From positions 32,001-96,000 of the IMG/VR virus record IMGVR_UViG_3300025584_000449: a DNA stretch of 64,000 nt. One strand, given 5' to 3'. The notes below the pieces were generated by a model that saw only the letters and a program-made list of their open reading frames with translations, did no database searches and was not told the origin of the DNA. Below are positions 11,787-63,135 of this stretch, one piece after another (the first letter of the stretch is position 1; the number at the start of each line of letters is the position of its first letter). Origin of the DNA: a virus. The translations under genes were made by a program, and so were the position numbers.

Positions 11787-12815
11787 TTATATATCGGTTG
11801 GGTTTCCTGAAAAAATTATTTTGTTCTCTTTAATATTGTTATGTTCTAATAAAAAGTCAAGCACAAAACCTTTAAACACCTCAAAAGTTTCAAATACTTG
11901 TAATCTATTGTAAGCATGTAACTTAAATGTTCCTACTAGAATTAAAATATCAATCTTGTTGAAGATCACATTGTTAGTTCCAGTAGCTGTTATTGCATAG
12001 GATAGTTTATCTAGATCTAGCCATCCTATATGTCTCTGTCTACCAGTAGTTACTCCGATCTCATTTCCTTCTATACGAATTTTATCGAAGATTTCATCGT
12101 CAAGACCTTGTTCTCTGAATTGTTTAAATCCTGAATAAGTCTCGTACACTTTAGCACATCCATAGATATCTCTAAGACTTTGAGGAGCTACTCCAGCCGT
12201 GAAGGCAGAGCAGGGCAATACACTGCTTGAGGTTACATATGGGTAATCTCCATGGTCTATGTCTAGCCAGAACCCTTGAGCGCCTTCGAATAATATATTG
12301 ATGTCTCGAAAGCCATCCAATTTATTTAATACTTTTACCGGATCCACAGTAAAGTCTTTTAGTAACGGGTGTGTCTCTGCTCTGATGTTTGTTCTATGCA
12401 TTTTTCCAGCATAGCACGGGCCGTTGCCTTGAAGCGTGACTCCAATAGAGCTATCTTTTTTATCTTGTTTTAGATGTTTATCTTCTATTACGTGAGCATT
12501 CTTTGCAATAAATAATCTATTGCGAATGTCCATATCAGAGGCATTTTCAACTTCTTCAAGCTCTTCTAAGAATTTCTCTGGATTGACTACGCAACCCGGC
12601 CCTATTAAAGATTTGGTTGATGCTTTTACTGGAAAGGGAATAGAATGTGTTTGTATCTTTTTTCCATCTATATATGATGTATGTCCTGCATTATGTCCGC
12701 CGTTGAAGCGAACTACCCAATCATAATTAAATGTTTTTTGGAGAGATGTGCTCACCTTCCCTTTCCCTTCGTCGCCCAGCTGTAACCCCACCACAATGTC
12801 TGAATTCAAATTCAT
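11787..12815 (-). CDS. purA: Adenylosuccinate synthetase (short form)
   Basis: GDEGKG, GGHNAGHT, EGAQG, YPYVTSS, GVTTGR. Confidence 0.92.
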   Translation of the reverse strand: MNLNSDIVVGLQLGDEGKGKVSTSLQKTFNYDWVVRFNGGHNAGHTSYIDGKKIQTHSIPFPVKASTKSLIGPGCVVNPEKFLEELEEVENASDMDIRNRLFIAKNAHVIEDKHLKQDKKDSSIGVTLQGNGPCYAGKMHRTNIRAETHPLLKDFTVDPVKVLNKLDGFRDINILFEGAQGFWLDIDHGDYPYVTSSSVLPCSAFTAGVAPQSLRDIYGCAKVYETYSGFKQFREQGLDDEIFDKIRIEGNEIGVTTGRQRHIGWLDLDKLSYAITATGTNNVIFNKIDILILVGTFKLHAYNRLQVFETFEVFKGFVLDFLLEHNNIKENKIIFSGNPTDI

Positions 12816-13660
12816 ATTTTCTTATATTCCTTATAATATTGTGCAAATTTTGCAAATGTTGCATGATTTCTACCATATTTTTTATGATAGTTTTTATGAC
12901 AAATTTCACATAAAGTTATTCCATTATATAAATTATATCTGTCTTCCGGAAAGTTAGCCCAACTATTTAAATGGTGAGCATTTAAATTTTTTCCCTTGTT
13001 ATTTTTACATATACAGCAAGTATACTTATCGCGGGCAAAGATAGAAGTGCGCCACTGTTTATTTTCACTAGTGCTTCTTTCTGCTAGACGCTCTTTATCA
13101 GATTTATTATGATTGTAATTAAAATGGTAAATACCTTTTTGTCTAGATATGCACCCACAAGATTTAGTTACTCCAGTTTTTAAACTATGGGCAATAACAG
13201 TCGGTTCATTGCCGCAGTCACATTTACATACCCATTTAGTAAATCCATTTAAATCATTTTTAGCTCTTTTAATTACAATTAATTTACCAAATCTTTGATT
13301 AACAAGATTGTCAAGTCGTGTTATACAGCCACAAGATTTAGTACGTTTACTTTTTAAACTTTTAGATTTTACAATTTTTTCATTTCCACAACTACATTTG
13401 CATAACCATTTTTGATTTCCAACATATTTAACTACAGTTAGTTTGCCAAAAATTTTCCCTACTAAGTCTTTAACTTTTAAAACTAAACAACCACAAGATT
13501 TAGTATGACCTGAAAGCAATTTACTTCCTACAATAACTTTTTCATTTCCACAATCACACTTACAAGCCCATAATATTTTTCTGTGTTTATTTTTACCAGC
13601 TATTTTAATTACTGTTAATCTACCAAACTTTTGTCCAGTTAAATCTATAAGTTTACCCAT
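12812..13660 (-). CDS. HNH homing endonuclease with three N-terminal FG(R/K)L..W.C.C.CG..KSCGC repeats
   Basis: Repeats plus NLNAHH..NGITLCEICHKNYH. Confidence 0.88.
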   Translation of the reverse strand: MGKLIDLTGQKFGRLTVIKIAGKNKHRKILWACKCDCGNEKVIVGSKLLSGHTKSCGCLVLKVKDLVGKIFGKLTVVKYVGNQKWLCKCSCGNEKIVKSKSLKSKRTKSCGCITRLDNLVNQRFGKLIVIKRAKNDLNGFTKWVCKCDCGNEPTVIAHSLKTGVTKSCGCISRQKGIYHFNYNHNKSDKERLAERSTSENKQWRTSIFARDKYTCCICKNNKGKNLNAHHLNSWANFPEDRYNLYNGITLCEICHKNYHKKYGRNHATFAKFAQYYKEYKKI

Positions 13661-45352: not shown

Positions 45353-47347
45353 ATGAACAATCTATTCTTAGATAGGAAAGAGCTTGAAAAGAAAGCGTTT
45401 CGCTATTTAACAGAAGACCACACTAATTGGGTAAAAGAGATAATTACGGAGTTGTTAACAAACTTCCCTGAGTTTACAGACGTGGATTTAGGTGTTGAGT
45501 GGATACGTAAAGACTTCAATAAAGGAACAGCAGTAGGATTCGTCAATATACAAGGAATGGCTCAGGTCCCTGTTATAGTAGATAGCTATAATATGTATGA
45601 TCTTGATGTCATTATAGTGAATAACTCAACGTATCCGTTAACACACGATACAGTGTTAAAGTTATTTAAGAATCCGGCAGCATTTAAGACTTCCGGTAAA
45701 GGCACATCTTTAATTAAAGACCTTGATCTATTTGTACGTCCTGTTGTAGAGCCAGCCACAGCTGGTGAATCTAGCGTTAAGACTGCTAAATATGACTCTG
45801 TAATAGAGAAAATGGGTGGGTCGGTGCTAGGTAATGACTTACGAGACATTCTTTCGTCTATAGAGCCATATCTCAACGAATATATGGACAATGGACATGG
45901 CGATATCATTGAGAAGCTTAGCAGTATTGAGCCTATTGAGGAAACTGACTTTGCTAAAGACTTAATGCGTACTATGCCTATTGACAGACAGTACAAATAT
46001 GAAGATAGTAATGGTAACACTATATTAAAACAGGCTAATAGTAGGGTGAACTACACATATATGATAGAAGTTGACAGTCAAGAGGCTGATCTTAATGAGG
46101 ATATGACTGCAGAATCATTAAAAATAGCGGCCTCTTATTCTAGTCCAGACCTATATACATACTATATTGATAAAAGAGGCAAAGCTCAAAAAGCCTATAC
46201 TACTGTATTCAATAATGTAAATAAAAAGCGTGACATAAAGGTAATAGATAGAGAAACTTTCAAGACTATGAGAGTATCTTCTGGTATTAGAAATCCTAAG
46301 CGTAAAGCTGAATATTTAAAACGTAGAAATAAGTCAACTGAGAAAATTGCTAGTGTTAATGAATCTCCTAAAGTAATGAAACTAGTAAATGATCCTGGGT
46401 CTCTGTTCTTATATAAGAACGGAAGCTATTTATGCAGCGATGACACAAATTCTCTAGATATGGAGAAAGTTGCTAGCCTTGGATCACAGCAATGGACACC
46501 AGAAGGCACAATTCCTTCTATGGGCGATACAGGCTGTTGGGTATTTAGCGATAATAGTGCTTCTAAGCCGTTTGAGGTAGTAGGATTACATAAGGTTGCT
46601 GGTGTAGGCAACTTTGAGGTTGTAGGCTGGGATGGAATGAATAGACATACGTATTATCCTCTGCAAGGCATTAAGGATAATGACCTTATTGAGCATGATA
46701 AGTATAATGATTCGTCCTATGTACCAGGAAATACGAAATTCGTTAAATTGGCTACTAGAATTGAGAATAATGATCTGTCATTGATAAGAGAGCATATCAG
46801 TAATAAGGTAAGCAAGGATAGTGCCGGATTATACTCATTCCATGGAGCGGAATTTAGCAAATATAGCTCTAAAACTAGAGACTTGACCTTTGATGAGGCT
46901 ATGTGGACTGCGATACATTGTAATGTACCCAATGATCAATTAGAATCATTGGAAAGCTTAGAGAAAAGCGCTTCATTGGCGTTAGATGCTAAAGCTCCTA
47001 TGTCACTTCTTGATCTCGAGTATAAGATCCATTCGAAATATAAGGATCTGTACTCTGACATGAAAAATGACATCATGAAGGTGGCTGCTATGGGTGCGGT
47101 TCCTAGTATTGGGTCACCTAAGACCATAGATGCCGTATTAGGGCTTAGTCTACTCAATAAGAACAACATTACGAGTTACTTAGAGCTGATTCCTGCCTAT
47201 GAAGAGGTATTACAGTACTTAGCTAAGCTACTACTGGCTGTGCGTATGGGACTTAAGACGTTAGATGAGTATCAGGTAAAAGAGGCAATGTTGAACCTGA
47301 CTAAGGTGGTTGTAGGGCTAAAGAGCTTAGGTGCTGTAATGAAATAG
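45353..47347 (+). CDS. Large protein with multiple K-x-A motifs, putative virion structural/assembly protein
   Basis: EKKAF, VKTAK, LKIAA, EKIAS, EKVAS, HKVAG, VKLAT, EKSAS, MKVAA. Confidence 0.7.
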   Translation: MNNLFLDRKELEKKAFRYLTEDHTNWVKEIITELLTNFPEFTDVDLGVEWIRKDFNKGTAVGFVNIQGMAQVPVIVDSYNMYDLDVIIVNNSTYPLTHDTVLKLFKNPAAFKTSGKGTSLIKDLDLFVRPVVEPATAGESSVKTAKYDSVIEKMGGSVLGNDLRDILSSIEPYLNEYMDNGHGDIIEKLSSIEPIEETDFAKDLMRTMPIDRQYKYEDSNGNTILKQANSRVNYTYMIEVDSQEADLNEDMTAESLKIAASYSSPDLYTYYIDKRGKAQKAYTTVFNNVNKKRDIKVIDRETFKTMRVSSGIRNPKRKAEYLKRRNKSTEKIASVNESPKVMKLVNDPGSLFLYKNGSYLCSDDTNSLDMEKVASLGSQQWTPEGTIPSMGDTGCWVFSDNSASKPFEVVGLHKVAGVGNFEVVGWDGMNRHTYYPLQGIKDNDLIEHDKYNDSSYVPGNTKFVKLATRIENNDLSLIREHISNKVSKDSAGLYSFHGAEFSKYSSKTRDLTFDEAMWTAIHCNVPNDQLESLESLEKSASLALDAKAPMSLLDLEYKIHSKYKDLYSDMKNDIMKVAAMGAVPSIGSPKTIDAVLGLSLLNKNNITSYLELIPAYEEVLQYLAKLLLAVRMGLKTLDEYQVKEAMLNLTKVVVGLKSLGAVMK

Positions 47348-47530
47348 CTTACCTGGTAGCACGCCATTAAGGCAAAATAGTGAAATGGGTGTATATGCAA
47401 ATATATGCCCTTTTTTCTTGTGTACCGTACAAGGAATATAGAGGCCACAAGTGGTATAAGAACATTGGTAGTGTATAGTGTAAACAAATGGTTACACAGG
47501 AGCAACAAATACCAACATTGAGAGGTTATT

Positions 47531-47805
47531 GTGGAGCTACTAGGAGAATTCATCATGTTTGTCATAGTAGGCATGATCTCATATCGATACGGTTACGGCT
47601 CAGGCTATAGAGCCGGCCACGATAGAGGCGTAAGGGGCTTTAGAACATGAACATACAAACCGCGATTAGCATTGTGACATATTGTCACCCTAGCATATGT
47701 CTCAATAATGTACCAATTGAGACAATAATACACGCTGCTGAGCACATCCTGAACACACAACAAGGCCCAAGGCCATACATAGCGCTCACTGGCGAGCGTT
47801 ATTGA
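47531..47805 (+). CDS. Two small ORFs (47531..47650, 39 aa TM; 47647..47805, 52 aa), not in track
   Basis: Downstream of plus-strand GGTATAAGAA at 47453; ATGA overlap; terminator GAGAGGGC/GCCCTCTC. Confidence 0.6.
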
Positions 47806-48040
47806 GAGGGCATTGCCCTCTCTTTAGCCTAAAAAAATATTAAATGACCATCAAGGTTTTAGGTTCCATACACCTACCCCGCCTAAGAAGCTTACCTGAT
47901 GCTGCGCGTGCGGATAGTTATTTTTTATTTTATAAATTTTTATGTTAATCTAAATGGGCTTAACACAGAGTAGTAACTGCTTAAATAATACATGTTGACA
48001 AACATTATTTATTCGAGTATATTATAATTGGAGGTTACTA

Positions 48041-48496
48041 ATGAAAAAACATGCAGGGTCAAACATCTACTTTTCTAAAGGGAGAAAGATGGATTTAAGC
48101 AAGGCGCTTAGTCCAAGCACATCTTACCATTATTCGGCTCAAGGAAAATATACAGATCCTATTTTACATATGGATCGTAAAGAATCTAAATTTTTAAATA
48201 AAATAGACAATCAAACTACATATATAGATCCCAGTCAAACAGAAGCTTATATAAAAGCATATGATAAATCTGTTAGAAAAGGTGTAACAAACCAGTTTTC
48301 CAAATGGGAAAAGAAAAAAATAAAGAAAAAGTTCTTAGGGATAATTCCGTATACTAAGAAAAAACGAGTAGTAGTCACAGATAAAAAAGGTATTGAGAAA
48401 AGATTAAACGATCCTGAGTTTAAAAAGCAACATTTACGCGTTTTAGGATTTATGAATAAAAATAGAAAAACTGGATTTTCAGTAGGAGTTGGGTAA
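48041..48496 (+). CDS. Basic protein starting MKKHAG
   Basis: Sigma70-like promoter, GGAGG RBS. Confidence 0.8.
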   Translation: MKKHAGSNIYFSKGRKMDLSKALSPSTSYHYSAQGKYTDPILHMDRKESKFLNKIDNQTTYIDPSQTEAYIKAYDKSVRKGVTNQFSKWEKKKIKKKFLGIIPYTKKKRVVVTDKKGIEKRLNDPEFKKQHLRVLGFMNKNRKTGFSVGVG

Positions 48497-48559
48497 CACA
48501 GCATTTTAAGCTAAAGAAAAGGGAGTTTGTGGTCCTCCCTTTTTATGGTACGACGATGA

Positions 48560-48730
48560 TTAATCAGACGGCGGCATCCAACTATCAACGTTGAATTTCG
48601 GAACTGGGACACGAATAGTAGCATCAAAATTCTTGACCTGATGCTCAACCGCGTGGTCCATCTGTTGATTCTGCCATGCCCGGAACAGACCAGCAGTACA
48701 GGAAGTCAGAATGAGTGCCAATGCTAACAT
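48560..48730 (-). CDS. 56-aa putative lipoprotein/membrane protein (not in track)
   Basis: MLALALILTSCTAG...; GGAG RBS; own GGTATAAGAA. Confidence 0.6.
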   Translation of the reverse strand: MLALALILTSCTAGLFRAWQNQQMDHAVEHQVKNFDATIRVPVPKFNVDSWMPPSD

Positions 48731-48787
48731 TTCAATCTCCTTAGTTAGTGTATTATTCTTATACCAATAAAAGCTAAAAGAAGGGAG

Positions 48788-49096
48788 TTACCCCTTCTCC
48801 TCATCTTCGTACATAAGGATAAAGTCGTTGAGGGCGTTTTCTGCTTCTAGCTTAGCCATGAATTCCGACTCTGCAGTCCCTCTTGCTACGTAGACATGCT
48901 CGTATGCCGGTAGCGGTGTGTAATACACTGACCAATGCCACACGGTCTCCATGGAAAAAGAATGAAAAGTAATCCCCAAAAACTTAAAGATTTTTCTTTC
49001 TTGTATGGAGGAAACGTAACAGTTGGCAGACGATTTTTCATGAGTGCGGTTTAACTGTGATACAGTAGCCAGCACAGGGGTCCATTCAGAAGACAT
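48788..49096 (-). CDS. Hypothetical protein (single-gene cassette)
   Basis: Leader shared with 49633..49935. Confidence 0.75.
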   Translation of the reverse strand: MSSEWTPVLATVSQLNRTHEKSSANCYVSSIQERKIFKFLGITFHSFSMETVWHWSVYYTPLPAYEHVYVARGTAESEFMAKLEAENALNDFILMYEDEEKG

Positions 49097-49184
49097 GTCG
49101 TGCTCCTTATTTCAAGTTAACTCTACCTACACTATTCTTATACCTAAAAAAGAGGGACTAGCCCTCTTTGAACAAACGGAGCAC

Positions 49185-57416: not shown

Positions 57417-60362
57417 ATGATATATTCTATAACTCTCCAAAAAAAGCAAAAATTCGGCAGACCTAAAAAAGTCACGCTTAGAGAATATTCTAAGCGTAGA
57501 CTTGAGGCTAATGTTATGCAAAAGTTAAAGGAGGGTTATACAAAAACTGCATCTGAGAAAAAAGATATAGTTGAAACTGCTGGAGCATCCGCAGCTACTG
57601 CGGGTGTTTTACAAACTACTAATGTAATAAAAAAGAAACGTGCTATAAAGAAAGCTCCTAAGACTATTGAAGAGGCACGAAGAGTTTTAGAAAAAGCGAT
57701 GGCTGGTGCTAGTAAAGGTGATGTAATATTTACTAGCAACCCTAAAGGGTTAACTCCTGATTATAGACCATTACATCCTATAATGATTCTTGATAAGAGA
57801 AAGAAAAAATTAGGGGATGTGTATCCCTCTACTGTTAATGGTGTTAATAGTAATGTAATGTCTGGAGTTAAGTCCCCACATCACATTGAGTCAACAAAGT
57901 CCAAATTAGATTTTTATTTAACTGGGGCTGGTTATGGTAAGGCCGAGTATAAGCCAGAGCATTTTTTACAGTTTAAGAGTATAAAAAAAGGAAATCCAGA
58001 AGCAGCAAAAAGGTTTGTTGAACAAGCTAGATCAGGAGAATACTCTTACGGCATTGGTAGTCCAAAAAATCCTAAAAAGATAACATGCGTAGATGCAATT
58101 TGTAAAGCTATTCATGGTAAAAAATCAATTAAACACTCGACTCCACGAGCTCTTTCTAAATCATTAAAAACTGTTTGGAAAAATCCTGCTGCTTATAAAG
58201 CACTTCCCGTAGTTGCTCCAGCTGTAGCCGTTGGTGGAACAGTAGCTGCTTATAAAGCTTTTAAAGCTAGAAATAAAAAAGTGTCTACTCAAAATAAAGC
58301 AGTTATTGCGGCAGGTGCTATAGGCACTGTGCCAGCAGTACATGCTGGAACCTCCCTGGTAAAAGGTTTTTCAAGAACGGGATTAAAACAGTTAATGAAA
58401 ATAGCTGCTAAGAAAAAGGAAGATAATAATAAAGCTAAAGCTTCTGTTTTAGCAGGAACTGCGGTTGCGGCTCCTACTGCTGTTGCAGCAGATCATTTAA
58501 CTAGAAAACGTAATCGTGTAAAGATTGATCCTAAAGCTAAAGATGCTATTATATTTACTGAAGGTGGAAAATATAACACTGGCGGGTCTGGACATGCTGC
58601 AGCGTCAGAAGCCATTAGACAGGCCTATGAAAAGAAACATCCCGGTGCAAAAGCTCACGTAATGAACTATGGAGATTATGCTAAAGCTAAAAGATTGGCA
58701 AACCCTGCTAAAACTAATTATGAAGCTATGGCTGGAATTTCTACACAAAATCCTTTTAAGAAATTTTTAGGACGGTTAGGGTTTGGTAGTACTTATCTAC
58801 CTTTCTATGCCTCAGTAAGTAAAAGAAAATTATCAAAAGATATTAAAGCAATTAATCCTGGAAGAGTAATAGTTACTCATCCTGGAGCTGCTCCACATTT
58901 ACAAAGTTTAGGCATTAGTCCTGAAGTAGTAGTAACAGATTACGGTGTGGGTAATAAAGGCTCTAAAGATTTTTGGGAAACAGCAAAGGGTCTTGGAAAG
59001 AAAGATCCAAAAAATGTTGGTGGAGTGTTTGCTCCTTCTAAATCTGGAACTGATATCTTCAAAGATGTAAAGGATGCTGGAAGACCTGTTACACAAATTA
59101 GCTCTATTCCAATTGAAAATCGTCACATAAAGCCTGTAAAGGTTGATAAAAAATTAGTAAGAAAAATAAAACCAACAGCTTCACCAGATTTTGATGCTTA
59201 TACGCCAGATAGAAAAAAGAGTGGAAAAATTGTAGTTCCAAAGGGTAAAAAATTAGTTGTATTAGCTGGTGGTGGTACAGGACAAGACGTAGAAGCTATG
59301 GCAGAAATTCTGTTAAAAGAAAAACGAAAAGGTATTCATTACGTAGGTGTTGCTGGCGGAAATAAAAAAGTATATAGAAGATTACAACAACTACAGCAAC
59401 AGCATGGTGCAGATAAGATATCTATAACTGGTTTTGCAAAGAATCTTGATAAACTAAACGAAGCTGCGCATGTAACAGTCTCTCGCCCTCACGGGTTAGG
59501 CCCTACTGAATTAGGCGCTTCCGGTAAAGTCAATATTAATGTTGTGCGTGGGAGAAAGTATGACAAGAGAAAAAAGAGTTTAAAATTTGTAGATAGCTAT
59601 AGCCCTCATATGAGTGAGAATGCTTTACATTATAGGGATACAGCTGGATCTCCTATTGCCACCCTTAGAAGAGGCAAAGGTAGAAAAGGATTAGATTATA
59701 ATAGTTTGAATGATCAACTAAATTATGCTTTGAGTGATCATAAAAATTTAAGTGCAAAAGCGAAATCTTGGCAAGAAACCTTCCAAGAAGGTGGCGGTGC
59801 AGCTGAAGTTGCAGCGGCCAAGTCTAGTACTTTCTCAAGAAAACTTAAACTTAGTAAATCTAAAGTCGGAATAGCTGTTGGCGTTAGTACGGCATCACTT
59901 TTAGGTGCTAAACACTTTCTTACTAAAGATAAAAAGAAGCAAGTAAAGGTAGCTGAAATGAAAAAGAAAAAGAAGGAAACTGGAACACTTGTGTCTTCTA
60001 CAGTTAAAATGACTGCAGCAGGTGCGACAGCTGGTGCTGGAAAATATATAACAGATTTGATTAGACTTGGTCAGCCAGGCGATACTGCTGGTCAAGGGTT
60101 TAGCGAACGAGCTATTTTAAAAGGGGTAAGCGAACAAGCTATAAAAGATTCTCTTCGTATGCGCTCAAAGGGTGGTATTAGAGATAGTTTTTCTGTTGCG
60201 CTACACGGAGAAGAAATAGCTAAAAAAGTAAGAGAAACAGCTAATGCTAGAATCTTCAGCAAAGGAGTATTAAAATCTATGAAAGCACCAGCCGTAGCTG
60301 CTGGGTTAGCTGGATTAGGATTTGGAGTCCATCGTGAGTTTAAAAGGAAGCAAAAGAAATGA
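57417..60362 (+). CDS. Multidomain protein: permuted NlpC/P60-like module, GT28/MGDG-synthase-like glycosyltransferase and hydrophobic hairpins
   Basis: GDVIF..LHP..AKRFVEQA..YSY..ITCVDAI; GGSGHAAASEAI, VIVTHP, VVTDY, VLAGGG, ITGFAKNL..VTVSRPHGLGPTE. Confidence 0.7.
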   Translation: MIYSITLQKKQKFGRPKKVTLREYSKRRLEANVMQKLKEGYTKTASEKKDIVETAGASAATAGVLQTTNVIKKKRAIKKAPKTIEEARRVLEKAMAGASKGDVIFTSNPKGLTPDYRPLHPIMILDKRKKKLGDVYPSTVNGVNSNVMSGVKSPHHIESTKSKLDFYLTGAGYGKAEYKPEHFLQFKSIKKGNPEAAKRFVEQARSGEYSYGIGSPKNPKKITCVDAICKAIHGKKSIKHSTPRALSKSLKTVWKNPAAYKALPVVAPAVAVGGTVAAYKAFKARNKKVSTQNKAVIAAGAIGTVPAVHAGTSLVKGFSRTGLKQLMKIAAKKKEDNNKAKASVLAGTAVAAPTAVAADHLTRKRNRVKIDPKAKDAIIFTEGGKYNTGGSGHAAASEAIRQAYEKKHPGAKAHVMNYGDYAKAKRLANPAKTNYEAMAGISTQNPFKKFLGRLGFGSTYLPFYASVSKRKLSKDIKAINPGRVIVTHPGAAPHLQSLGISPEVVVTDYGVGNKGSKDFWETAKGLGKKDPKNVGGVFAPSKSGTDIFKDVKDAGRPVTQISSIPIENRHIKPVKVDKKLVRKIKPTASPDFDAYTPDRKKSGKIVVPKGKKLVVLAGGGTGQDVEAMAEILLKEKRKGIHYVGVAGGNKKVYRRLQQLQQQHGADKISITGFAKNLDKLNEAAHVTVSRPHGLGPTELGASGKVNINVVRGRKYDKRKKSLKFVDSYSPHMSENALHYRDTAGSPIATLRRGKGRKGLDYNSLNDQLNYALSDHKNLSAKAKSWQETFQEGGGAAEVAAAKSSTFSRKLKLSKSKVGIAVGVSTASLLGAKHFLTKDKKKQVKVAEMKKKKKETGTLVSSTVKMTAAGATAGAGKYITDLIRLGQPGDTAGQGFSERAILKGVSEQAIKDSLRMRSKGGIRDSFSVALHGEEIAKKVRETANARIFSKGVLKSMKAPAVAAGLAGLGFGVHREFKRKQKK

Positions 60363-60669
60363 GCAAGACTAAGATCGTCGTGAATAAAACTAAAAATCGT
60401 GAAAAACTATTAAGACAAAGAAAAGAAGAAAAACGACAAGCTAAATACAAGTCATATGAAGATTATGACCAAGATACTTATTTACAAGATGACGAAGACT
60501 AAACCGAGGAAATAACCAATGAGATCATTTAAAATTGACGAATATAATTCTATTCCATTTAAGGATGAGGTAGAAACGTTACGTGAGAATGGTGAACATA
60601 AAGAGGCTTTTGAACTAATGGATACATTAGCTCAGCAAGCTATTACAACAGAAGATAAAGAAAAAACTG

Positions 60670-61329
60670 ATGAGTAAGAATTATCTTATTCAAGCTTTAC
60701 TATCTGCTGGGGCTATAGGCTATGGAGTTCACGGTATTAAGCAGACTGATAAAGTTAATAAGGTACTTGAAGATCAAGTAAAAAAAGAAATAAAAATTAA
60801 TCAAAGATTACCAAAAGTTCCCAAAGACATAAAATTATTAAAAACTAAAAAAGATTTACATTCATATATTGACCTTTCAGAAAAAACTGATAAAAAACGA
60901 AAACTTATGAAACAAATTATAGGGCCGATAACAAAAAAGCCAAATGCTTTTGCGTTTGTACCAGACAATGAATCCGCCGGGTTAGCTGTTTATATCCCAG
61001 ATAATATGAAGGCTTCTAAAGTAGTCGCCCACGAATTGGGACATATAGAAGATTTTAAGAAACATAATGTAAAAGGGACTATAGGATATAACAAATTAAT
61101 AAATACTAAAAAAAGTCTTTTTAAAGGTATAATTAGCCCTAAAAAAACTTCCGTATACAGCTCTGAAGTTAGGGCTTGGGATAACGCAAAAATAAAAAAA
61201 GATGACCCATTAAGAGTGGCGGCTTTAAAAACATATGAAGAAAATTTAAAGATTTATAGAAGAACTATTCCTATTTTATTAGGAGTTGGTAATTTATATA
61301 GACTTGGATTTAAAAAAAGTAAATGGTAA
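60670..61329 (+). CDS. Zincin metallopeptidase-like protein
   Basis: NAFAF..VAHELGH..SEVRAW..ALKTY. Confidence 0.75.
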   Translation: MSKNYLIQALLSAGAIGYGVHGIKQTDKVNKVLEDQVKKEIKINQRLPKVPKDIKLLKTKKDLHSYIDLSEKTDKKRKLMKQIIGPITKKPNAFAFVPDNESAGLAVYIPDNMKASKVVAHELGHIEDFKKHNVKGTIGYNKLINTKKSLFKGIISPKKTSVYSSEVRAWDNAKIKKDDPLRVAALKTYEENLKIYRRTIPILLGVGNLYRLGFKKSKW

Positions 61330-61353
61330 ATAGTAGGAGGTAGAAGAGTAATA

Positions 61354-62456
61354 ATGGAATATTTGTTGATGGAGCACAATGGTGACCAAGACCATTTAGA
61401 AATAGTAGAAACTATAGAAGAATTTGTATTAGACAAATTTGGACATACAAAAGTTGAAGAAGCTATTTCTACAACAGATAAAGTAATTATATATAATAGA
61501 GAATTAGACCCTCTAGTTACTTTAAATAAAATACCTAAAGACGCAGACTTAAATTTATTGTTTAGCTTAACTGGAGAGTAATTATGCCGGAAGAAAAGAT
61601 TATGCGGAACTCTAATACAGTTCCTCGTGGGACAGGTGCCACTAAAACTGTAGGGATAATGTTGTCTATTGTATTATCGTTTTTAACGATATGGAATTTT
61701 ATGGGAGATAGAATTGATGATATTATTACAGCACAGAATAATTATCATATAGCTCATGAAAAAGCACACACACAATTATATAATGAGATGGATGACCTAT
61801 TACATGAACTAGGTGATATTAAAATTAATATGGAAGATAGAAAAGTGCAAAAATATAAATTAGAAAATGTTGAACATGTTAATGCACAAGAAGCTTCTGA
61901 GAGTAGAGAAGAAAGACATTTATTAGAGTCACAAGATAGAGATCATAGCACAGCAATTACTAGACTAGAAGAACAAGTAAAAACTATTCAGAATAGAATA
62001 GAAATACTTCACCCCTAAAGTATTCGGGAGACTAACCATAATGGAATTTATCATACTAGGATTGATAGGTGTGTCATATGTTTGTTTGTTTGAGCCAACC
62101 TTACTAACAAATCACCTTGCACACTTTTTAAAATTAAAAGCAAAGGACGAGGAATAATGCAAATTGTTTTAAATGACTTAGATCCGACAAAAGATGAAAA
62201 GTTATTAGCATTTTTTGAAGGGCAAGAATCTGCTTTGGTTAAGATGGCATCCATCTTAACGTATAATACAGATGCAGATTTTGAGGGGCTGTTTGAAAAG
62301 ATAGCTGAAACCTACGAGCCTAGTTCTTTTAAAGAGCTACAAGAAAAAGTCGAAGAACTATTTCCAGAGAATGTTAAATTAGCTAATAAGTTAACTACTT
62401 GGGGAGATAAGTTATGTTTAGACAGAGATAGACTAAAGAAAGTGTTTAATCTCTAA
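61354..62456 (+). CDS. Hypothetical ORFs (61354..61581; 61584..62018 TM plus coiled coil; 62157..62456)
   Basis: Co-oriented with RBSs. Confidence 0.7.
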
Positions 62457-62608
62457 TGAATATCAGACCTTTACAACAATCACAAAAAATAACTTGCTCT
62501 GCATGTAAATCTGGAATTGCAGTAAGAACAAGACTAGTAGGACCAGACGGTAAAGGTAGATTTGTATACAAATGTACAAATCCAAAATGCAAAGTTTCTA
62601 GGAGATAA
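62456..62608 (+). CDS. 50-aa zinc-ribbon protein (not in track)
   Basis: CSAC..YKCTNPKC; TAATG overlap. Confidence 0.6.
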   Translation: MNIRPLQQSQKITCSACKSGIAVRTRLVGPDGKGRFVYKCTNPKCKVSRR

Positions 62609-62646
62609 TGATGTTAAAAAAGTTAGGGAAAACTTAAAGATTAATT

Positions 62647-63135
62647 ATGATTTTTTGTAAGAATGCAAAATTAAGAGGAAGAGCATTAAGAGAGATTAGA
62701 AAACTAAAAGCTTTAGCAAAAGGTGATTTGACTACTCATCTTACTAATAGAGAAAGTTTAAATTCTATAATTTCTTCTAAAAAATTATTATCTTCAGCAG
62801 ATATTCATAGATTACCAGCAGAACATTCTTTAAGAAAAACCGAATGGGCTAGAATTTTTGGTCTTCATGGAAATTTAAGTGGCACTTATGGGGCTGAAAC
62901 TGGTAGAAATTATTCAGTTATATTTAAAAGAAAAAATACTATTAATGGTCCAACAAAATTTAAAACTGTAACCATGAAGTCTCCTCAAAAATTAAAAAAA
63001 ATTATAATAGGAACTCCAAAGTCTGAATTAAATGTTTTAAGAAAGAAATATAGGGATGTTGTTTTTGTAGATAATTCAGACTTACGTAAATTAGGATTTA
63101 AAAAAGAAGGGTTTGAATATGGCTATCGCTATTAG
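62647..63135 (+). CDS. Basic protein starting MIFCKNA with a possible DarT-like ART start motif
   Basis: TTHLTNRESLNSIISSKKLLS resembles H-x-T..L-x-S-I..G-x-L-L-S. Confidence 0.45.
   Translation: MIFCKNAKLRGRALREIRKLKALAKGDLTTHLTNRESLNSIISSKKLLSSADIHRLPAEHSLRKTEWARIFGLHGNLSGTYGAETGRNYSVIFKRKNTINGPTKFKTVTMKSPQKLKKIIIGTPKSELNVLRKKYRDVVFVDNSDLRKLGFKKEGFEYGYRY

Follow-up and report, generated by a model that had tools for sequence, protein, structure and literature searches.

The internal head proteins of phage T4 are diverse and have nothing in common but a conserved capsid-targeting sequence, or CTS (PMC3012670), and such propeptides target proteins to the core (PMC10052503). In phages phiKZ and SPN3US, gp175 and gp245, respectively, cut after Glu in A/S/G-x-E, and the propeptides are mostly 111-254 residues long (PMC10052503); the assemblins of herpesviruses cut after Ala, at YLQA/T and VQA/S (PMC4498786). 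In the literature on phage head proteases we found only motifs of the Glu type. The stretch of DNA analyzed here (64,000 nucleotides, hereafter the window) comprises bases 32001-96000 of a 179.9-kb IMG/VR virus record. Between its positions 45353 and 63135 it encodes a series of basic proteins, several of which begin with a short leader ending in K-x-A, and the same motif fills the head-assembly proteins encoded just downstream. The best explanation, to which we give slightly better than an even chance, is a propeptide system resembling the T4 CTS but with a new protease specificity, in which K-x-A would be the site of the prohead protease.

The phage is a myovirus of about 180 kb belonging to the Arash-like lineage. 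It encodes a fused beta-beta' RNA polymerase, and just downstream of the window lie TerL, a head maturation protease domain, an HK97-type major capsid protein (MCP) of 302 amino acids (aa), and a tail sheath. The closest cultured relative is Salmonella phage Arash (34% identity in the MCP), followed by the Vibrio phages D69, D148, and D181. Relatives were collected through TerL-anchored searches, which yielded loci with a TerL identity of 42-71%, 10 of them viral and 51 metagenomic (labeled L plus a number below). The phage's own gene set consists of 207 genes called with a codon-usage model. Positions are those of the window, unless preceded by the word genome, in which case they refer to the whole record.

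The motif stands out most clearly in the head operon. When all 1,600 residue pairs at spacings of 0-3 are scanned without bias, K-x-A ranks first in five head-operon proteins (36 occurrences against 11.6 expected, z 7.1). It is also the top pair in the 664-aa protein encoded at 45353-47347 (z 4.0) and in a 363-aa protein at genome 14903; the top pair among minus-strand proteins is C-x2-C. Shuffling each protein separately likewise returns a large excess in the head-operon proteins, the 363-aa protein, and the 664-aa protein. The last has 11 K-x-A against 3.4 expected (z 4.5) plus 3 K-x-G, and not the nine copies counted in an earlier sequence-only reading of the window; the contexts of its sites match [LIM]-x-K-x-A-[SA]. 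In an acidic, scaffold-like protein of 172 aa, seven of the eight lysines lie within K-x-A. The residues around the sites are restricted as well, with L/I/M/F at -2, E/V/T at -1, T/V/I/L/Q between Lys and Ala, and S/E/A after the Ala. The refined motif is phi-x-K-x-A, and the fuller form of the site is [L/I/M/F]-x-K-[T/V/I/L/Q]-A-[S/E/A/G]. The same excess is found in orthologous head operons from relatives whose TerL is 42-62% identical and in Arash gp220, gp222, gp223, and gp225. An alignment of the 357-aa protein that follows TerL, taken from eight phages, keeps the K-x-A columns while the flanks drift, and all MCP orthologues (20+ N-termini) carry K-x-A at residues 23-28. K-x-A dominates the scaffold, the protease, and the MCP-proximal proteins. 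Outside both the window and the head operon, the 363-aa protein (genome 14903-15994) has 13 K-x-A against 2.9 expected and could be a core protein or one more substrate of the protease; it directly follows an N-acetylmuramoyl-L-alanine amidase (genome 14343-14906; Pfam Amidase_2, E 1e-18).

The sequence-only reading presupposed a prohead protease, and the phage encodes a likely candidate for this enzyme. A 577-aa protein (genome 99987-101720) matches phrog_18299, head maturation protease, with an E-value of 1.9e-9. Its AlphaFold model, based on a 15-sequence alignment, places residues 31-201 at a predicted local distance difference test score (pLDDT) of 66-89, and in a Foldseek search with the model T4 gp21 comes out best (5jbl, probability 0.97), with a series of herpesvirus assemblins next. 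The conserved His/Ser domain of this protease lies between two K-x-A sites, KTA (residue 27, invariant) and KVAS (about residue 214), a bracketing that would be expected if the enzyme releases itself. Because assemblins cut after Ala (PMC4498786), a K-x-A followed by Ser fits with a protease of this fold. A separate observation concerns the length of the protease gene, which in several relatives encodes 790-970 aa as opposed to the usual ~580 (L060:13019-15757, L026:10768-13635, L046:13519-16236, L056/L057:14504-17422, and L065:14323-16698). The extra length lies in large insertions, near residue 150 and near residues 375-420 in the alignment, which may be inteins; L017 has a long TerL as well (939 aa).

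The leaders fall into three types. Type 1, with the consensus M-L-x-(x)-LGF-x-K-x-A, is found on plus-strand proteins near TerL in relatives (for example, MLKALGFKKQA, MLLHKLGFTKIA, MFKELGFLKNA, and MNLTDLGFHKCA) and is intact in the phage's own genome as MLKDLGFEKQA (genome 113253) and MNLSKLGFKKEA (genome 13898). Type 1 copies at 50125, 51873, and genome 17287 have kept LGF and lost K-x-A. Type 2, MGKFFKTA, occurs in six loci of relatives (L027, L041, L061, L068, L070, and L025, where it takes the form MGKYFYKKA; L025 is identical to the viral locus L009), and in the phage itself on the gene at 50848 and on a leader-only stub. Type 3, M-[DNS]-K-A-x-x-[IV]-F-E-K-[LIM]-A with the basic form M-D-K-A-x-x-V-F-E-K-L-A, is common in relatives, and MAKTEEAVFKAIRA at 56463 resembles a decayed copy of it. 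In all three types the residue two positions ahead of the Lys is Phe or otherwise hydrophobic, as it is in the sites of the head operon.

These leaders are portable. In relatives the type 2 leader precedes 11 other proteins that, stripped of it, form no clusters, and its codons vary. After removal of 14 residues, the 24 proteins with a type 1 or type 2 leader fall into 23 BLAST clusters. Since synonymous codons differ between the proteins and the upstream DNA is unrelated, the conserved unit is a peptide and not a DNA signal. Among non-redundant clusters, a leader is present in 38 of 206 on the plus strand versus 3 of 106 on the minus strand (p 3e-5), and the clusters with leaders are more basic than the others. 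The carriers were already described as basic and mutually unrelated in the sequence-only reading, which is borne out: their net charge of +0.11 to +0.16 per residue is in the top decile of the genome, and BLAST detects no similarity among them. The idea of a portable leader that shares its motif with head proteins thus survives in the recurrence of the leaders on non-homologous basic proteins across relatives; several of the leaders on which it was founded are degenerate, and MLIKLGFSKTYY and MILLKLGFQAPR are without K-x-A. Because leaders and head-assembly proteins share it, K-x-A most likely serves the head protease as its signal for cutting and sorting. One carrier of a type 1 tag, a basic 103-aa protein that starts with MLLKLGFKSK (genome 17287-17598, outside the window), matches the mitochondrial carrier repeat (Pfam Mito_carr, E 1.9e-11, 44 bits versus a cut-off of 22.3); a single carrier repeat is unusual in a phage.

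The signal had originally been formulated as K-x-[AG], which is too loose. In the first 8 residues of the 207 proteins this form is found 17 times against 10.5-13.3 expected, a weak excess. K-x-A in the first 13 residues does better on the plus strand (10 versus 4.3 expected) and also shows a mild excess on the minus strand (10 versus 6.6). In the first 30 residues the plus-strand (late) proteins have 22 against 11.4 expected, and the minus-strand proteins are close to expectation. We also built a profile of head sites from relatives only, which is biased towards acidic flanks; 19% of the K-x-A sites in the phage's own genome exceed the 95th percentile of its null distribution, as compared with 2% of the K-x-G sites. 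Gly is therefore not part of the motif. The Lys before LGF is not conserved in relatives, where this position is A, R, D, E, or K, and the K-L-G of the original formulation is therefore a misparse of the LGF motif. Inside basic proteins K-x-A is not enriched (21 observed versus 41 expected). We considered selection against internal cuts as the cause of this depletion and dropped it, because K-x-G is equally depleted there, and segregated composition explains both.

The likely position of the cut is suggested by a 237-aa protein encoded next to TerL, whose orthologues exist in three forms. Leaderless orthologues (this phage, L042, L012, L016, and L017) start with MS[LI][LF]D. Others have a leader of 8-10 residues with the pattern ..F-x-K-x-A-G[IV]LD (e.g., MIKFLKKMA-GILD, MKFFKQA-GILD, and MNNFFRKVA-GILD), or are fused behind a 50-residue module that ends in ..FFK[RQ]A-G[VA]LD (e.g., ..VVFFKRA-GVLD). 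The common body begins one residue after the Ala in every case, which predicts that the cut would fall after the Ala. This residue is invariant at the site, the residue after it is S/E/A, and the junction defined by the leaderless orthologues falls behind it. The existence of orthologues with and without leader also shows that orthologues can gain or lose a leader.

The aromatic-basic core of the type 1 and type 2 leaders is not confined to N-termini. In 715 plus-strand proteins, LGF or GKFF followed by Lys or Arg is confined to the ends: the first 12 residues hold 11 copies (0.16 expected) and the last 16 residues 7 (0.28 expected), and none lies in the interior, where 3.6 would be expected. 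C-terminal copies terminate the genes at 60670 and 62647 (Table 1) and, in relatives, proteins that end in GLLGFKKK, KLGFRRTKDV, NLGFRKKE, and VGKFFKKEN. Because the core tolerates either end and never the middle, it may be a docking tag. A stretch of 22 identical nucleotides (AAATTAGGATTTAAAAAAGAAG) at window 63088-63109 and genome 13910-13931 encodes KLGFKKE in both places, as part of a C-terminal tail in the former and of the N-terminal leader of the gene at genome 13898 in the latter. Given the codon choice, this identity is unlikely to have arisen independently and points to recent copying of the tag. A relationship to type IV prepilin leaders (K-G-F-T-L-I-E) was ruled out: prepilins have a Gly-Phe junction and then a hydrophobic stretch with Glu at +5, whereas LGF is followed by K/S/E-K and polar residues without a hydrophobic stretch. 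The leaders may also bear a similarity to the L27/Prp leader of Firmicutes.

If the propeptide reading is correct, a protease of the gp21/assemblin fold would recognize phi-x-K-x-A and probably cut after the Ala. The scaffold-like proteins, whose sites are 20-40 residues apart, would be cut to pieces, the MCP would lose about 27 residues, and the protease would free its own catalytic domain. The leaders, 5-15 residues in length, would bring the basic, rapidly evolving accessory proteins encoded at 48041-63135 and elsewhere into the scaffolding core and would then be removed, so that the DNA-filled head would contain Lys-rich proteins of the internal or ejection kind. The 981-aa open reading frame (ORF) at 57417 would be a polyprotein that is cut at K-x-A into membrane-active enzyme modules, and the aromatic-basic core (LGF or GKFF plus K/R) would be a possible docking element. 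A more speculative extension, which we consider rather doubtful, holds that the label has two transferable parts: LGF/GKFF plus K/R docks at either end of a protein, in the manner of an encapsulin cargo-loading peptide; in the N-terminal version an adjacent K-x-A lets the assemblin-like protease cut; and injected, hypervariable effectors pass from phage to phage by recombination at the label.

The resemblance to the T4 system (IPI-III and Alt, cut by gp21) is close in several respects. In both, proteins that are basic, diverse, and hypervariable are conserved only in a short N-terminal leader; a protease consensus forms the end of this leader and also marks scaffold and capsid proteins (here also the protease itself); and the phage encodes a prohead protease of the gp21 fold. 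However, the site in T4 is [L/I]-x-E, and here it is phi-x-K-x-A, probably cut after the Ala. There are at least three leader flavors here, with a terminal LGF/GKFF core that is also present at C-termini. The leaders have no sequence homology to the T4 CTS, and for this phage cleavage, the exact cut position, packaging, and injection are inferences. With its logo [LIMF]-x-K-x-A-[SEA], the system would work like that of T4 but is outside the T4 sequence family. With phiKZ and SPN3US it shares many head and ejection proteins with N-terminal propeptides, multiple copies of the motif, and a self-processing protease (PMC10052503), the propeptides and the self-processing being predicted here; it differs in its leaders of 5-15 residues and in Lys and Ala as key residues in place of A/S/G-x-E. 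Herpesvirus assemblin (MEROPS S21) matches in the fold of the protease; it cuts after Ala with Ser/Thr next, and the probable cut here would come after an Ala that is followed by Ser, Glu, Ala, or Gly. Unlike assemblin sites, those of this phage have Lys at the presumed P3 position, number tens per head operon versus two or three, and double as leaders on accessory proteins. The LGF/GKFF core has a functional analogy in the cargo-loading peptides of encapsulins, which are short and strictly terminal (C or N) and sit on unrelated cargo for an HK97-fold shell; however, their sequence differs, they are not removed by a protease, and binding to the capsid interior is for our core an analogy only.

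One competing explanation is that Lys- and Ala-rich proteins yield K-x-A by chance, a caveat that the sequence-only reading had attached to its own proposal, and that the usual Lys-rich N-termini do so as well. The weak genome-wide excess of the loose motif at N-termini, the mild excess on the minus strand, and the lack of enrichment inside basic proteins would all be accounted for in this way. Chance composition is contradicted, however, by the shuffle and all-pairs controls and by the conserved K-x-A alignment columns, and it would explain neither the recurrence of leader consensus sequences of 8-12 residues on unrelated proteins nor the strictly terminal distribution of LGF/GKFF. We consider this explanation highly improbable. 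A better case can be made for leaders that serve mainly as recombination joints at the DNA level, their short conserved 5' ends allowing swaps of single-gene cassettes in a hyperplastic region, with stubs and C-terminal copies as scars and a peptide without a role in sorting or cleavage. The exact 25-nucleotide duplicate with its leader-only stub at 51255, the second stub at 62611, the exact match of 22 nucleotides that links the leader at genome 13898 with the tail at 63088, the variable presence of leaders among orthologues, and the location of the cargo genes, orphans in a mosaic region, are as one would expect from such joints. Across relatives, however, it is the peptide that is kept, while synonymous codons and upstream DNA differ; the motif is always in frame and strictly terminal; and the motif at the end of the leader is the one with which the scaffold proteins are filled. 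Joints alone are therefore unlikely to be the whole explanation, but recombination at the leaders may well take place alongside the propeptide mechanism.

Two further alternatives accept that the motif matters but assign it to a different activity. In one of these, the Lys is modified, either by the phage's own ubiquitin-like conjugation kit or through an isopeptide cross-link, and no cleavage takes place. The invariance of the Lys and the presence of an E1-like gene also in Arash, a compatible phyletic pattern, agree with this notion. However, an invariant Ala followed by Ser, Glu, or Ala is typical of P1-P1', and assemblins cut between Ala and Ser; the sites flank the protease domain; leaderless orthologues begin right after the site; and the seven of eight scaffold lysines, spaced about 20 residues apart, fit degradation better than tagging. 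This makes Lys modification very unlikely. In the other, the leaders are removed by a different enzyme, such as the HExxH protein encoded at 60670 or a host peptidase, or LGF/GKFF anchors lysis or membrane proteins at the membrane interface. In favor of this are the conservation of the HExxH protein in L065, where its gene neighbors TerL, the hydrophobic, Ala/Gly-rich segments of several tagged proteins, and the position of two tagged genes in a lysis-like cluster beside an amidase, one of them encoding the carrier-type membrane repeat. Yet a homologue of the HExxH protein was found in only 1 of the 61 loci of relatives, whereas K-x-A is lineage-wide; the proteins encoded at 50125, 62647, genome 13898, and genome 113253 have no hydrophobic segment visible by eye; and the site also fills soluble, acidic scaffold proteins. 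We regard both variants of this alternative as distinctly unlikely.

Several observations nevertheless speak against the propeptide reading. Four of the 11 tags in the phage's own genome are without an intact K-x-A, and most C-terminal tags are not preceded by K-x-A (a single copy is). The family of the 237-aa protein works with or without a leader, so that a leader is not always needed. Because the cargo proteins lack homologues, it is impossible to trace whether a given cargo keeps its leader. On the head-site profile, which favors acidic flanks, the scores of MIFCKNA and MGKFFKTA are poor. For the protease, the match in fold is a modest one (E 3e-3), and the whole model has a pLDDT of 57. 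The paper on the Arash virion reports no processing and mentions neither protease nor cleavage, and the Arash structural proteins gp4-gp16 do not have such leaders; no leader-bearing cargo was found among the structural proteins gp2-gp17 or at the end of the Arash record.

Table 1. Proteins and leader-only stubs encoded between window positions 45353 and 63135 (RBS, ribosome binding site).
Feature	Position	Strand	Characteristics
664-aa protein, fold unassigned	45353..47347	+	N-terminus MNNLFLDRKELEKKA ends in K-x-A; 10 more internal K-x-A
151-aa basic protein	48041..48496	+	N-terminus MKKHA-G; +0.15 net charge per residue; RBS GGAGG upstream
213-aa basic orphan	50125..50766	+	Type 1 tag MLIKLGFSK, LGF kept, K-x-A lost
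133-aa basic protein	50848..51249	+	Type 2 leader MGKFFKTA
Leader-only stub	51255..51308	+	MGKFFKTAYWATKNIKC, then stop; 25 nucleotides identical to 50847-50871, identity ends at Ala codon
60-aa basic protein	51873..52055	+	Degenerate type 1 tag MILLKLGFQAP
Basic protein, 317-328 aa	56430..57416	+	Two tandem units, each opening with MKKKAG (56649, 56892)
981-aa basic multi-module protein	57417..60362	+	Ala/Gly-rich hydrophobic segments flank each module
219-aa HExxH metallopeptidase-like basic protein	60670..61329	+	HELGH...RAWDN; hydrophobic ends; tail RLGFKKSKW, then stop
Leader-only stub	62611..62637	+	MLKKLGKT, then stop; AGGAG RBS; remnant of type 1 tag
162-aa basic protein	62647..63135	+	N-terminus MIFCKNA-K; C-terminal tail RKLGFKKEGFEYGYRY, then stop

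The region itself (Table 1) is nearly devoid of recognizable families. Its plus-strand proteins have no PHROG or Pfam family, and searches with ten of them returned nothing usable. Megablast and tblastn searches with the region and the 981-aa protein against 50,697 phage records gave no match; pattern-based locus searches with the 981-aa, 213-aa, 664-aa, and 297-aa proteins and with P0002, a stand-alone 540-aa protein, found no relatives; and in tblastn searches of the basic proteins against the 61 loci of relatives only the HExxH protein matched. The peptides quoted in the sequence-only reading are all present (MKKHAG at 48041, MLIKLG at 50125, MGKFFKTA at 50848, MILLKLG at 51873, and MIFCKNA at 62647), and both stubs are real, the identity of the one at 51255 to the gene at 50848 being one nucleotide longer than the 24 given there. 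MKKHAG also scores poorly on the head-site profile (-0.5), and the protein that it precedes has an LGF 17 residues from its C-terminus. The 664-aa protein has no Pfam, PHROG, or Atlas assignment and is a candidate head-internal polyprotein or protease substrate; that it might be the portal is unsupported, as it has no similarity to Arash gp218 and Atlas gave no usable match. A search of 5.8 billion proteins with the 213-aa protein found only the protein itself. An ADP-ribosyltransferase assignment for this protein was not adopted; the Atlas lead to PARP is weak (16% of one cluster, score 0.87).

The notion that the motif marks module boundaries inside long ORFs is borne out in a few cases, namely the MKKKAG starts of the two tandem units at 56430..57416 and the ends of a module within the 981-aa ORF. 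The latter ORF has KTAS at residue 43 (57543-57551), KIAA at 328 (58398-58406), and KVAE at 844 (59946-59954). Its residues 325-820 are 43% identical to P0002, whose N-terminus aligns at KIAA and whose C-terminus projects to about residue 850, beside KVAE. The KTAS site scores 4.2 on the profile of relatives' head sites, and if translation starts at 57516, where GAGG lies upstream, the leader would be MQKLKEGYTKTA-S. Residues 606-704 match the glucosyltransferase UgtP (9wde, E 5.6e-4), and this UgtP-like glycosyltransferase is, tentatively, the only cargo domain to which a function may be assigned. The HExxH protein has a 30%-identical homologue in L065 (9160-10002), next to TerL, in which HEVGH and RAWDN are conserved. 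This homologue has an extra N-terminal domain, MPAKSQ.QQR..GMVHA, that stands alone in L009 (2274-2912).

Some features of the window and of Arash lie apart from the leaders. The basic plus-strand genes are interleaved with minus-strand cassettes at 52737-53390 and 54142-54849, where, as judged by eye only, one protein has a KxDG motif of nucleotidyl-transferases (ligase-like) and another would be a calcineurin-type metallophosphatase (GDxHG...GNHD). At 11787-13660 on the minus strand, a 342-aa ORF matches phrog_1211, annotated as 2-aminooxy adenylosuccinate synthetase, although its best stretch covers only profile positions 3-151 of 414; an ORF for an HNH endonuclease adjoins it, suggesting that the gene has been split or invaded. 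In Arash, the first 70 residues of gp246c (177076-177288), which is annotated as structural, are 38% identical to the E1/ThiF-like enzyme of the phage studied here, and the ubiquitin-like kit may, judging from this similarity, extend to Arash.

If the propeptide reading is true, the protease of these phages would represent a new specificity class of the gp21/assemblin fold, with Lys at P3 and Ala at P1, and phage proteases would be linked to the Ala-Ser rule of the herpesviruses. The cultured relative Arash makes the cleavage part directly testable. An 8-12-residue tag could then load foreign proteins into these capsids, as the T4 CTS did. In a group of large phages that is almost unannotated, a sequence rule would pick out the head-internal or injected proteins; the candidates would include a peptidoglycan- or lipid-active polyprotein and basic orphans with a possible role as anti-defense factors.

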